The position numbers are program-made. 64,000 nt of DNA from Escherichia coli (GTDB taxonomy: Bacteria; Pseudomonadota; Gammaproteobacteria; Enterobacterales; Enterobacteriaceae), in NCBI RefSeq assembly GCF_002854065.1, contig NZ_CP024147.1. One strand, 5' to 3'. Shown piece by piece: positions 3,001-6,000 of the stretch (positions are counted from its first letter, which is position 1; every line of letters starts with the position of its first letter).

Positions 3001-6000
3001 CGACCGTTTCCAGCAGCTGCGTGTCGATAAATTTGAAACCCAGGCTACCCAGACCATAAGAACCGATAGCGAACGCGGAGATCAGACCTTTACGCTCCGG
3101 GAACCATTTCACGCAGTTAGAGAGCGTCAGCAGGTAACCCGCGCCATCCGCCAGACCGACCAGCACACCGGCGCTTAACCACAGCATCATCAGGTTGTCA
3201 GAATGCGCTGTCAGGAAGAACCCTAATCCCAGCAAAATGCCGGAAGCGATGGTGACGCGTTTAACACCAAAACGTTCCTGCAATTTGCCCGCAACAGAAG
3301 ACGAAATTGCCAGCCCCAGACTTAACAAGCCGAAAGAGAAAGCGACCTGGCTTACCGGCGCATCCAGCTTGGCGGAAAGCGCGCCGTTAAACAGGCTCCA
3401 GGTATAAACCGACCCCAGCGCAAACTGGGTAATGATAGTACCGATGAGTGTCAGCCAGCGGGTACGCTGATAATTTGAAGGTGTCATGGCAGTATTCCTG
3501 CAGTAATAAAAAGGAAAAATCTCTGCCGACAACCATAACGAAGTGCACTTTATGCCTGGGGAAAAACGGCATGAAATGCCATCAGAACGGAATGAAATGC
3601 CTTAGTTCAGGAATGAATGACGCGACAATTATTCACCAAATTTATTATTTGGTAAGTTAGCACCCACTATCGCCACAACTATTGTTATTCAATGGTTTCA
3701 ATTGTGATTGTTACGTTAAAATCTGGCACTAACCCCCATCGTATACAGATAATCGCTATTGTTAGTGGTATTTTCTGCCTGAGATAGCGCGGCATAGGCG
3801 GCAATATTTTGATTGAGCAACATATCAGCGCCTACGGTGACATCCAGCCAGTTGCCGTTCTGGTTTGTCGCCGTCATCCGGCTCAGGCCTGATTGCGCCT
3901 TCCAGATATTCTCGCCAAATTGCTGGTTATAGCTGATTTGCGCCCAGGGTCGGAGATCGCCAAGCCGGGAGTCAACACGCCAGCCTAAGGTACTCACGCT
4001 GGCATGCCATAACGGATCGGTCAGCGTGGTAGTACTGTCGCCAAACTCGTTATACATCGAGGTGGTTGTGCCATCGTAATGTAATGCCGCGACCGGGCCA
4101 GTTGTAACCTGTTCATATAAAGGAAAATTCCAGCCCATACTCATACTGCTGGTCACATCCACAGGGGTTTCTTCCGCCAGATTGACTTCCAGTCCCAGCG
4201 CCCTTTGGCTACTTTGAATACGTTGCGACAAAATATCGTTGTAATCAGGTTGATGATCACTATCCCAGGTGTAACGCTCTGTGGAATGCCCGGGTTGCGT
4301 ATCAACGATATATTCTTGTTGCCAGGCGTAAGCTGTGTTGAGAAAAAAGGCACTGATTACCACACTCGCCAGCAGGCTTAGCTGCCAGCGACCACCGCTT
4401 TTTTTTATGATCATTAACACGACTCCAGGGAAGAGCCGAATTCGGCAATATTATTGTCATTGTATGAAGGATATCGGGCATAGTAGCCCTGTATTAAATA
4501 TTGACTTTTTCACCGATGCGTCAAGAAAAGCGGCTGAAATTTTTACGATCGGGTACATAGCGAGGGAAAGTATGGAACGTTGCGGCTGGGTGAGTCAGGA
4601 CCCGCTTTATATTGCCTACCATGATAATGAGTGGGGCGTGCCTGAAACTGACAGTAAAAAACTGTTCGAAATGATCTGCCTGGAAGGGCAGCAGGCTGGG
4701 TTATCGTGGATCACCGTCCTCAAAAAACGCGAAAACTATCGCGCCTGCTTTCATCAGTTCGATCCGGTGAAGGTTGCCGCAATGCAGGAAGAGGATATCG
4801 AAAGACTGGTACAGGACGCCGGGATTATCCGCCATCGCGGGAAAATTCAGGCAATTATTGGTAATGCGCGGGCGTACCTGCAAATGGAACAGAACGGCGA
4901 ACCGTTTGCCGACTTTGTCTGGTCGTTTGTAAATCATCAGCCACAGGTGACACAAGCCACAACGTTGAGCGAAATCCCCACATCTACGCCCGCCTCCGAC
5001 GCCCTATCTAAGGCACTGAAAAAACGTGGTTTTAAGTTTGTCGGTACCACAATCTGTTACTCCTTTATGCAGGCATGTGGGCTGGTGAATGATCATGTGG
5101 TTGGCTGCTGTTGCTATCCGGGAAATAAACCATGATTAGGGAAGCGCAACGTTCAGAACTCCCCGCGATCCTCGAACTGTGGCTGGAAAGTACAACCTGG
5201 GGCCATCCCTTTATAAAAGCGAATTACTGGCGCGAGTGCATTCCGCTGGTGCGGGATGCCTATCTTGCCAACGCACAAAACTGGGTCTGGGAAGAAGACA
5301 GTAAGCTTCTCGGTTTTGTCAGCATTATGGAAGGCCGATTTCTGGCAGCGATGTTTGTCGCACCGAAGGCCGTCAGGCGCGGTATTGGTAAGGCGCTGAT
5401 GCAGTATGTGCAACAGCGCCATCCCCATCTGATGCTGGAGGTTTATCAAAAAAATCAACCGGCGATAGATTTTTACCAGGCGCAGGGTTTTCACATTGTC
5501 GATTGCGCATGGCAGGATGAAACCCAACTACCCACCTGGATTATGAGCTGGCCGGTGGTTCAAACGCTGTAAGTGTCAGTTCCGGACCGTTGTATTTTTC
5601 TAGCCATGCCAGCGCCGTATTACCCGCACAGCCATTCCCCAGCCGCGAGCTGGGGAGATCTTTGGTCAGCACGTTGACTGCGCCGTTTTTACAAATACCG
5701 TCAGCGGTTAAATCCAAATCCGGCCATGCCCCTTCGTGAATACAAATCACGCCAGGTTTAATTCCCTCGCTAATGACCGCTCCGGCAAGAATTTGCCCGC
5801 GTGCGTTCCACAGCCGAACAGTATCGCCATCTTGTATGCCGCGCGCCTGGGCATCGTCAGGATGAATGGTGACAGGCTCACGGTTTGCCACCGCGTACAA
5901 TTCGCGCAGAGAACTGTAATTCAGCTGGCTGTGCAGACGATGCGCCGGATGAGCAGAAAGTACCTGTAACTGTTCCGGTTCGGCATTGCCCTGCCATTCG

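Follow-up and report, generated by a model that had tools for sequence, protein, structure and literature searches.

Gene arrangement at the yiaC/bisC locus

The window analysed here is a stretch of 64,000 nt from Escherichia coli O157:H7 (contig NZ_CP024147.1), in which yiaC and bisC lie on opposite strands and have 32 bp of their 3' ends in common, as judged from the window sequence and the ORF list. According to the RefSeq annotation, the product of yiaC is a GNAT-type peptidyl-lysine N-acetyltransferase, and that of bisC is biotin sulfoxide reductase. BisC repairs oxidised biotin and methionine. The coding features are as follows.

4572..5135, + strand: tag CDS, which precedes yiaC in the tag-yiaC operon (annotation carried over from RefSeq)
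5132..5572, + strand: yiaC CDS, 146 aa, with a TAA stop at 5570-5572 (ORF list, RefSeq)
5541..7874, - strand: bisC CDS, 777 aa, with a TAA stop that is the reverse complement of 5541-5543 (ORF list, RefSeq)
5541..5572, both strands: CDS overlap, comprising YiaC I137-L146 plus stop and BisC L768-S777 plus stop

The yiaC start and the tag stop share 4 bp (this 4-nt overlap and the operon context are described in PMC6199490), and the + strand RNA that crosses the convergent overlap most likely starts upstream of tag. RefSeq has the same CDS pair for E. coli O157:H7 TR01, whose sequence matches the window at 100% identity, and for K-12 MG1655, where yiaC is annotated at 3713652..3714092 and bisC at 3714061..3716394 (the offset between K-12 and window coordinates is 3708520). 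The two genes overlap in phase 123:132, and they have the properties of a convergent overlapping gene pair, namely opposite strands, common 3' ends that include the stop codons, and conserved tails. The 32-bp convergent overlap claimed in the first-pass annotation is therefore exact by sequence, ORFs and RefSeq, with its coordinates unchanged.

Protein constraint in the overlap

The C-terminal 159 aa of BisC align with the DMSO reductases 1EU1 and 1DMR and with the TMAO reductase 7L5I. This alignment spans ...EKYxGxxxTxTxFxxP, after which those chains end within 2-4 residues, and the structure alignment leaves only the last 2-3 residues of BisC uncovered. For YiaC, the tail P134-T-W-I-M-x-W140 (the TWIMxW motif) is essentially invariant among 63 homologues, and homologue length is 146-148 aa across the Enterobacteriaceae. 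Because homology supports both reading frames up to their ends, wrong stops are excluded as far as sequence analysis reaches, and both annotated stops were upheld on re-inspection. An annotation artefact, in which one of the C-terminal tails would be untranslated, has next to no probability, given that the frame fixes the stops, that the homology just described covers both frames, that genes called independently in 12 other genomes and contigs show the same geometry, and that the region is found in 5,421 of 5,426 complete E. coli genomes.

Within the overlap, the two proteins are constrained in different places. Over the low-coordinate third (5541-5551), YiaC is constrained, with I-M-x-W invariant, and the last 2-3 BisC residues vary; over 5552-5572, BisC is constrained, with P-P-[D/E]-F-A-T-L conserved, and YiaC residues 141-143 and 146 vary. 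The real double constraint is small, and the extreme tail of the less constrained protein follows the changes of its partner. The YiaC variants Q144R and T145M/K/R, for example, are exactly those expected from BisC-synonymous wobble changes in the Phe and Ala codons.

Conservation of the overlap and position of the stops

Every one of the 17 Enterobacteriaceae loci compared has the overlap, which measures exactly 32 bp in 15 of them and 38 bp in 2. The loci come from Escherichia species, Salmonella, two Citrobacter, Enterobacter, Kosakonia, Metakosakonia, Pseudescherichia, and three further lineages in which YiaC identity is 52-55%, so that the geometry is kept down to 52% YiaC identity. A genome scan with the YiaC protein yielded five loci, all from Escherichia; the other taxa were reached through protein homologues and contig look-ups.

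Each stop codon is written by the other gene. Reverse-complementing the codons for the invariant YiaC residues Ile137-Met138 (ATT or ATC, then ATG) gives the bisC stop (TAA or TGA), and the BisC Leu768-Thr769 codons (CTT or CTC, then ACN) give the yiaC stop (TAA or TGA) in the same way. The two 38-bp cases can be followed at the codon level: for Kosakonia and Metakosakonia, a BisC-synonymous change of CTT to CTG destroys the yiaC stop, and YiaC extends by two codons to the next TAA, which is given by the preceding Leu-Thr pair of BisC. The geometry would thus be held by the partner's conserved codons, which spell each stop. The overlap itself is statistically unsurprising, and its conservation is non-random; the exactness with which the geometry is conserved could also reflect selection on a function at the RNA level.

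The 3' end of the bisC transcript

All transcript data considered here and below come from K-12 MG1655, and the window is from O157:H7; the 32 bp are identical between the two, and the surrounding region is about 98% identical. Two features of the - strand RNA lie within yiaC.

5383..5540, - strand: bisC 3' UTR, antisense to yiaC codons 84-137 (PMC10687069)
5392..5420, - strand: hairpin A, GGCGCUGUUGCACAUACUGCAUCAGCGCC, at yiaC codons K87-H97 (GNAT motif A)

The bisC 3' terminus is a peak at 3713899-3713909, with its dominant position at 3713903, which is window 5383 (PMC10687069 Supplementary Data 3). It was classed as "Distant primary", and the 3' UTR of 158-159 nt, which lies within yiaC, has a longest U run of 2 (PMC10687069). 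Hairpin A is located 9 nt upstream of this terminus, has no U-tract, and is followed by UUACCAAUA. It folds at -22.6 kcal/mol (z = -4.14), is 84% paired over 12 distinct sequences, and shows compensatory changes in 4 pairs. The Escherichia, Enterobacter ludwigii and Metakosakonia versions are more stable than their synonymous-codon shuffles, whereas those of Salmonella and Citrobacter are not. Assigning the hairpin to one strand by its G-U pairs was tried and gave no discrimination, since 111 of 132 cells are paired for the - strand and 107 of 132 for the + strand.

The - strand RNA is C-rich across 5300-5440, and the bisC RNA has the form of a protected 3' end, terminating just past a stable stem-loop that has no U-tract, with a C-rich, presumed rut region after it. 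Our reading is that hairpin A shields the bisC mRNA from 3'-to-5' exonucleases. The shape of the 3' end and the base composition suggest that Rho may terminate this RNA, after which exonucleases would trim it back to hairpin A. In the table of Rho regions in PMC7815308, yiaC is named for none on the - strand, and the other datasets consulted likewise give no Rho-dependent region for that strand.

The 3' end of the tag-yiaC transcript

Beyond the yiaC stop, the + strand RNA carries two features that lie within bisC.

5560..5860, + strand: rut-like stretch with C > G (GC skew -0.14 to -0.27), which has the Rho region at 5824 near its end
5635..5657, + strand: hairpin B, UUCCCCAGCCGCGAGCUGGGGAG then AUCUUUGG, antisense to BisC L-P-S-S-R-L-G-N

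The Rho region was mapped in K-12 at 3714344 (+), which is window 5824, antisense to bisC (PMC7815308 Supplementary file 2), with a Rho score of 7.3 and p = 5.5e-14 (PMC7815308). Coverage upstream and downstream of this position was 90/23 without the Rho inhibitor bicyclomycin (BCM) and 60/112 with it (PMC7815308), so that + strand read-through beyond about 5824 goes from 26% to 187% of the upstream coverage when Rho is inhibited. In the published K-12 data, BCM sensitivity is seen for the + strand only, and Rho stops the yiaC read-through about 250 nt into bisC.

Hairpin B begins 63 nt past the yiaC stop and folds at -18.9 kcal/mol (z = -3.03). It is the top match of a terminator-like scan, which gave 6 sites against 4.7 expected from shuffles, and its synonymous-shuffle z is -3.6 in E. 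coli and not significant in Salmonella, Citrobacter or Kosakonia. We consider it a candidate for a hairpin that marks or protects the 3' end of the tag-yiaC RNA or makes the polymerase pause; no published 3' end for yiaC or hairpin B was found in the supplementary tables covered. A role as an efficient intrinsic terminator of tag-yiaC was rejected for hairpin B, because its tail is weak and the downstream read-through is BCM-sensitive.

A more general proposal would make both hairpins, A and B, into intrinsic (Rho-independent) terminators, each embedded in the partner CDS, that together halt both transcripts. Both hairpins are stable (z = -4.1 and -3.0), the bisC 3' end falls 9 nt past hairpin A, hairpin B is the best match of the scan, and for some of the convergent overlaps of E. 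coli, rho-independent terminators are predicted within the coding sequence. The tails, however, are UUACCAAUA after hairpin A, where the longest U run is 2, and AUCUUUGG after hairpin B; the rise in + strand read-through with BCM would be unexpected past an efficient intrinsic terminator, and the scan as a whole gave 6 sites where shuffles lead one to expect 4.7. We regard this proposal as improbable.

There is no bidirectional intrinsic terminator at the locus, as the genes have no intergenic space and hairpins A and B have no U-tracts. The earlier statement that there is no room for terminators was thus right about the spacer, but wrong in that the 3'-end signals sit inside the partner coding sequences. 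Several other elements were considered and set aside. The A7/T7 inverted repeat at 5450-5474, the sole A/T-flanked one, was rejected as a bidirectional or bisC terminator (-4.5 kcal/mol, z = +0.55), and its U run reflects a codon choice that is specific to E. coli and absent in Salmonella and others. Two antisense ORFs, one at 5153-5527 (- strand, 124 aa, starting 14 nt past the bisC stop) and one at 6387-7487 (+ strand, 366 aa), run into stops in most of the other genera and are spurious. Rfam gave no match across 4300-8100 at E <= 1.

Overlapping transcripts and the RNase III duplex

That the two transcripts overlap antisense, as the first-pass annotation had claimed, is borne out by the geometry together with three published K-12 datasets. 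One is the mapping of the bisC 3' terminus inside yiaC, described above (PMC10687069). In a second, yiaC-bisC is listed among the 165 convergent transcript overlaps that occur in at least 50% of 58 RNA-seq sets (ExcludonFinder Table 1, PMC12288877). In another, a perfectly paired, RNase III-generated duplex designated "bisC yiaC" was recovered from K-12 (Huang et al. 2020 Table S3, PMC7373196). The duplex strands, AUUAUGAGCUGGCCGGUGGUU and CCACCGGCCAGCUCAUAAUCC, match the window exactly in the overlap region.

5538..5560, both strands: p19-captured 21-nt RNA duplex with 2-nt overhangs, formed by + strand RNA 5540-5560 and - strand RNA 5538-5558 (PMC7373196)

The published K-12 data accordingly contain two features expected of an excludon, which are transcript overlap in vivo and RNase III-processed dsRNA. 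The abundance of the duplex is low (184 and 90 reads, or 2.16 and 1.06 RPM; PMC7373196), and the same study reports dsRNA at 1 RPM or more for 87% of genes (PMC7373196). Read counts for yiaC and bisC are low in all datasets, and full-text literature searches returned no report of reciprocal yiaC/bisC expression.

These observations bear on whether the pair is a selected "excludon", in which antisense pairing cut by RNase III, head-on collisions of RNA polymerase, or both, would set bisC against tag-yiaC. The pair is indeed in the E. coli "excludome" list, and the RNase III duplex maps within the overlap; however, the duplex amounts to 1-2 RPM in a study where 87% of genes reach at least 1 RPM, the coverage of both genes is low, and reciprocal expression of the pair is not reported in the full-text literature searched. 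The geometry is conserved in 17 of 17 loci, but protein constraint and the locking of the stops account for this conservation. The hairpins are a further point, in that A and B exceed synonymous shuffles in Escherichia (an excess that could likewise reflect selection at the RNA level), hairpin A has compensatory changes, and collision-driven termination at convergent pairs requires a nascent stem-loop (Wang et al. 2022, doi 10.1101/2022.10.23.513370); against this, neither hairpin reaches significance in Salmonella, Citrobacter, Kosakonia or Pseudescherichia. On balance, we think it unlikely that the pair is a selected excludon.

Interpretation

We conclude that yiaC and bisC are two real genes whose tail-to-tail overlap is probably an ordinary one that was fixed long ago, and not a dedicated regulatory device. 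Both the type of feature and this particular case are known, the pair being already annotated and catalogued. With no spacer between the genes, each mRNA would continue into the partner gene as untranslated antisense RNA, and the termination signals lie inside the partner gene. Rho would stop the tag-yiaC RNA some 250 nt inside bisC, and the bisC RNA would end within yiaC, 9 nt past hairpin A, as is seen for both in K-12; the complementary tails would then pair at a low level and be cut by RNase III, as is also shown in K-12. Any transcriptional interference, or other effect on the expression of the pair, is probably small, because both genes are weakly transcribed (90 reads per 800 nt, and a duplex of 1-2 RPM). 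A more speculative idea, to which we give only a slight chance, is that the 32-bp overlap and the two stem-loops are a co-evolved 3'-end unit, in which the partners encode each other's mRNA-stabilising hairpin and RNase III couples BisC to Tag/YiaC under oxidative stress.

The scientific weight of the yiaC-bisC overlap is small, and its main consequences are practical. Deleting, tagging or recoding the last 10 or so codons of either gene alters the other protein too; the bisC-deleted strain BE104 retains yiaC and about 8 nt past its stop. At the RNA level the sensitive region is wider than 32 bp: the bisC mRNA can have its 3' end disturbed by edits in roughly the 190 nt that precede the yiaC stop, and the tag-yiaC mRNA by edits within bisC up to about 250 nt past that stop. 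The pair is also a clean, data-backed teaching case of spacerless convergent genes that end their transcripts within the partner CDS, and of how an overlap can stay fixed over the long term simply through stop codons that are spelled by the partner's conserved residues.

Comparison with known systems

Bidirectional or collision-driven terminators (Wang et al. 2022, preprint, doi 10.1101/2022.10.23.513370) resemble the present locus in having a convergent pair with stem-loops near both ends, but yiaC/bisC is without the single common GC-rich hairpin between an A-tract and a U-tract. The resemblance to the Rho-dependent ends described by Dar and Sorek (2018; PMC6061677) is closer, since the 3' end of the bisC RNA likewise sits a few nucleotides past a stem-loop lacking a U-tract, with C-rich sequence downstream, and the BCM-sensitive read-through of the + strand into bisC is also alike. 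The difference is one of location, as the bisC stem-loop and presumed rut site lie inside another CDS rather than in an intergenic 3' UTR; the Rho dependence of the bisC end is one that we infer here. With excludons (the concept of Sesto et al.; PMC12288877), yiaC/bisC has in common the overlapping convergent transcripts and the RNase III-cut duplex. Mutually exclusive or antagonistic expression is the hallmark of an excludon, whereas yiaC/bisC is known from transcript overlap and duplex, and here the overlap extends beyond the UTRs to the coding sequences.

The closest relatives are the other convergent CDS overlaps of E. coli, of which there are 58-75 (Lillo & Krakauer 2007, PMC2174442; Huvet & Stumpf 2014, PMC4161906). 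Prokaryotic overlaps have a mean length of 26 bp and a modal length of 4 bp, and phase 123:132 is the commonest, accounting for 49% of convergent overlaps of at least 5 nt (PMC2174442; PMC4161906). Rho-independent terminators are predicted for only about 20% of the genes in convergent overlaps. As in yiaC/bisC, the overlap in these pairs is set by the position of the stop codons, and any terminator lies within the partner CDS. The yiaC/bisC overlap is likewise in the commonest phase and near the 26-bp mean in length; it is longer than the modal 4 bp and unusually stable, but differs from the others in no categorical way.

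The overlap and its stop codons

An 801-bp query spanning the overlap is 100% identical to the O157:H7 strain TR01 (the window being E. coli O157:H7), in which RefSeq annotates the same yiaC/bisC pair. Among 5,426 complete E. coli genomes, 5,422 contain a match, and in 5,421 the match covers 80% or more of the query. The first-pass annotation had the two genes sharing 32 bp at their 3' ends, and the coordinates are exactly as claimed:

5132..5572, + strand, yiaC coding sequence (CDS), 146 aa, stop TAA at 5570-5572
5541..7874, - strand, bisC CDS, 777 aa, stop TAA as the reverse complement of 5541-5543
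5541..5572, overlap of the two CDSs, 32 bp

RefSeq places the K-12 MG1655 genes at 3713652..3714092 (yiaC) and 3714061..3716394 (bisC), an offset of 3708520 from window coordinates. Because yiaC starts 4 bp within the end of tag (ATGA; 5132-5135), the + strand message is that of a tag-yiaC operon.

Once a reading frame is known, the position of its stop codon is fixed. Wrongly annotated stops had been named as what would undo the overlap; both frames are instead backed by homology up to the stop. In BisC, the C-terminal 159 residues can be aligned with the DMSO reductases 1EU1 and 1DMR and the TMAO reductase 7L5I, through EKYxGxxxTxTxFxxP, and since only 2-4 residues of those chains are left beyond the aligned stretch, the BisC tail is ancestral to the family and no run-on. 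YiaC equals its paralogue YjaB (2KCW, 147 aa) in length, and its residues P134, T135, W136, I137, M138 and W140 are essentially invariant among 63 full-length homologues. Two antisense ORFs that are open in E. coli, 5153-5527 (-; 124 aa, opposite yiaC, first base 14 nt after the bisC stop) and 6387-7487 (+; 366 aa, opposite bisC), are almost certainly spurious, since most other genera carry 1-6 stops within them.

Transcript overlap and RNA ends

All transcript data used here are published and come from K-12, which is identical to the O157 window over the 32 bp. They bear out the proposed antisense overlap of the transcripts in three ways: an ExcludonFinder entry, a captured duplex and a mapped bisC RNA end. 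ExcludonFinder (NAR 2025; PMC12288877) has yiaC-bisC in its list of 165 convergent transcript overlaps, each present in 50% or more of 58 RNA-seq samples. Huang et al. 2020 (PMC7373196), who captured in vivo RNase III products with the p19 protein, list under "bisC yiaC" (Table S3) AUUAUGAGCUGGCCGGUGGUU (184 reads, 2.16 RPM) paired with CCACCGGCCAGCUCAUAAUCC (90 reads, 1.06 RPM). The AUUAUGAGCUGGCCGGUGGUU strand matches window 5540-5560 exactly, which places the duplex within the CDS overlap and over the stop codon of bisC. A second bisC duplex in the K-12 p19 data (UAUGCGCCACCAGGGUUUUCC; 261 and 170 reads) maps to 6649-6669 (+), inside bisC, with one mismatch in O157. It lies ~1.1 kb beyond the yiaC stop and past the Rho region described below, which points to additional antisense transcription deep in bisC.

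On the + strand, Adams et al. 2021 (PMC7815308) report a Rho termination region at K-12 3714344, antisense to bisC, where upstream/downstream coverage is 90/23 without and 60/112 with the Rho inhibitor bicyclomycin (BCM; Rho score 7.3, p = 5.5e-14). This position is window 5824, ~250 nt beyond the yiaC stop, and C outnumbers G in the + strand RNA over 5560 to 5860, as expected for a Rho-loading region. On the - strand, the TRS study (PMC10687069) attributes to bisC a 3' RNA end at 3713903, which gives that gene a 3' UTR of 159 nt. The position corresponds to window 5383, within yiaC. The RNA there reads ...GGCGCUG-UGCA-CAUAC-UGCA-CAGCGCC-UUACCAAUA, and two hairpins lie in these end regions:

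5392-5420, - strand, hairpin A, -22.6 kcal/mol, z = -4.14, in yiaC codons K87-H97 (GNAT motif A helix)
5635-5657, + strand, hairpin B, -18.9 kcal/mol, z = -3.03

The bisC terminus falls 9 nt past hairpin A and lacks a U-tract, and the - strand RNA is C-rich over 5300-5440, just downstream of the end. According to Dar & Sorek (PMC6061677), Rho-dependent, exonuclease-trimmed transcripts end at a stable stem-loop, lack a U-tract and have C-rich sequence just downstream. The bisC RNA end shares all three features, and we infer that it is Rho-dependent. Rho is responsible for at least part of transcript ending at this locus. The statement that the pair leaves no room for terminators stands only in part: there is no spacer, but the 3'-end signals sit inside the partner CDS (Rho region at 5824, bisC end at 5383). 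Lillo & Krakauer 2007 (PMC2174442) already made this point, with rho-independent terminators predicted for only ~20% of the E. coli genes that overlap convergently. Complementarity between the two RNAs extends for 190 nt or more (5383-5572), and the full complementary span is probably ~440 nt (5383 to ~5824).

Hairpins and inverted repeat

Hairpin B, 63 nt beyond the yiaC stop, is antisense to the codons for BisC L-P-S-S-R-L-G-N, and AUCUUUGG comes after it. BCM restores read-through past it, which rules it out as an efficient intrinsic terminator. For hairpin A, 84% of cells are paired, with both-side changes at 4 pairs (12 distinct sequences), and its covariation score is 0.245 versus 0.145 in shuffles (reached by 0 of 500); its G-U pairs gave no indication of which strand is selected. 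Both hairpins are stabler than synonymous-codon shuffles in Escherichia (A, z of about -2.6; B, about -3.6) and a few other lineages, with no such excess in Salmonella, Citrobacter, Kosakonia or Pseudescherichia; the signal is limited to certain lineages and no more than suggestive. The AT-rich inverted repeat at 5450-5474 (AAAAATCAACCG / CGATAGATTTTT; A7 run on the + strand) looks by eye like a bidirectional terminator but has no stable fold, and arises from the codons that E. coli uses for YiaC Y-Q-K-N-Q-P-A-I-D-F-Y.

Conservation of the overlap geometry

The mere existence of the overlap is unremarkable. Different annotations put the number of convergent CDS overlaps in E. coli at 58 to 75; prokaryotic overlaps have a mean length of 26 bp and a mode of 4 bp; and the phase found here (123:132; yiaC codon positions 1, 2 and 3 opposite bisC positions 1, 3 and 2) is the commonest among convergent overlaps of at least 5 nt (49%). 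Its conservation, however, is non-random. We compared 17 loci: E. coli O157, K-12 and five other Escherichia lineages (including E. albertii and E. whittamii), Salmonella enterica, Citrobacter amalonaticus, C. rodentium, Enterobacter ludwigii, Kosakonia, Metakosakonia, Pseudescherichia and three lineages in which YiaC identity to the E. coli protein is down to 52-55%. The overlap is present in all of them, exactly 32 bp long in 15, with both stops at homologous positions, and 38 bp in two. Most loci also retain the order yhjY, tag, yiaC, opposite-strand bisC, yiaD.

The upstream tag/yiaC junction takes two forms. Escherichia and loci L012 and L013 have a 4-bp overlap (ATGA, Tag 187 aa); the overlap is ~20-23 bp by gene calls (Tag 192-193 aa; L008-L011, L014, L015 and L017, at ~3501-3523) in Salmonella, Citrobacter amalonaticus, Enterobacter, Kosakonia, Pseudescherichia, Metakosakonia and L014. 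In Citrobacter rodentium (L016) the space upstream of yiaC (~2942-3523) is sufficient, yet tag is not called and may be a pseudogene; this locus has an IS4-family transposase at its left edge. Separately, E. coli BE104 (NZ_CP040643.1; locus positions 3474-3870) has lost nearly all of bisC (annotated remnant, 153 nt of the 5' end) and keeps yiaC plus ~8 nt past its stop, so that the deletion end-point respects the overlap. The source field of the record reads "not applicable", which suggests an engineered strain.

The stability of the geometry is probably explained by stop locking: conserved codons in each gene spell out the stop of the other. Reverse-complementing the final two bases of YiaC Ile137 together with the first base of Met138 yields the bisC stop; ATT-ATG gives TAA and ATC-ATG gives TGA, and each version is found and is silent for YiaC. 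The yiaC stop is likewise the reverse complement of BisC Leu768-Thr769 (CTT-ACN gives TAA, CTC-ACN gives TGA). Kosakonia and Metakosakonia use the Leu codon CTG, silent for BisC, which abolishes the yiaC stop, and YiaC extends two codons to an in-frame TAA from the preceding BisC Leu-Thr pair; 24 of the 63 homologues have this +2 aa form. Over 5541-5551, YiaC I-M-x-W is invariant and BisC varies at its final two or three positions (S/N/T/P, then S/P/A); over 5552-5572, BisC P-P-[D/E]-F-A-T-L is conserved and YiaC residues 141-143 and 146 are free to vary. The rare YiaC changes Q144R and T145M/K/R are the exact products expected of BisC-synonymous Phe and Ala wobble changes. Judged from these alignments, constraint is partitioned inside the overlap, and the stretch constrained in both proteins is very short. 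This accounts for the tolerance of the overlap and also for its being frozen, with no RNA-level function required.

Possible interference and comparison with known systems

Read counts for yiaC/bisC are low across all datasets. Transcriptional interference at the pair would probably be weak, with RNA polymerase collisions and duplex-triggered decay infrequent and of little effect. The listed transcript overlap and the captured duplex are what a functional excludon, with mutually exclusive expression of the two genes, could build on. In the p19 study, however, dsRNA reached 1 RPM or more for 87% of genes (PMC7373196), so the 1-2 RPM of the bisC yiaC duplex is a background level, and we consider such a function unlikely.

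Gene annotation, transcript overlap and duplex were all in the public record before this analysis. Our additions are modest: the overlap geometry is shown to be fixed across Enterobacteriaceae, stop locking is offered as the explanation of that stability, and both 3'-end regions are placed within the partner genes. The site is not a bidirectional intrinsic terminator. It is one of the convergent overlapping gene pairs, a well-described class. By transcript and dsRNA criteria it also counts as an excludon, as which it is already listed; the reciprocal regulation that defines excludons is putative here.
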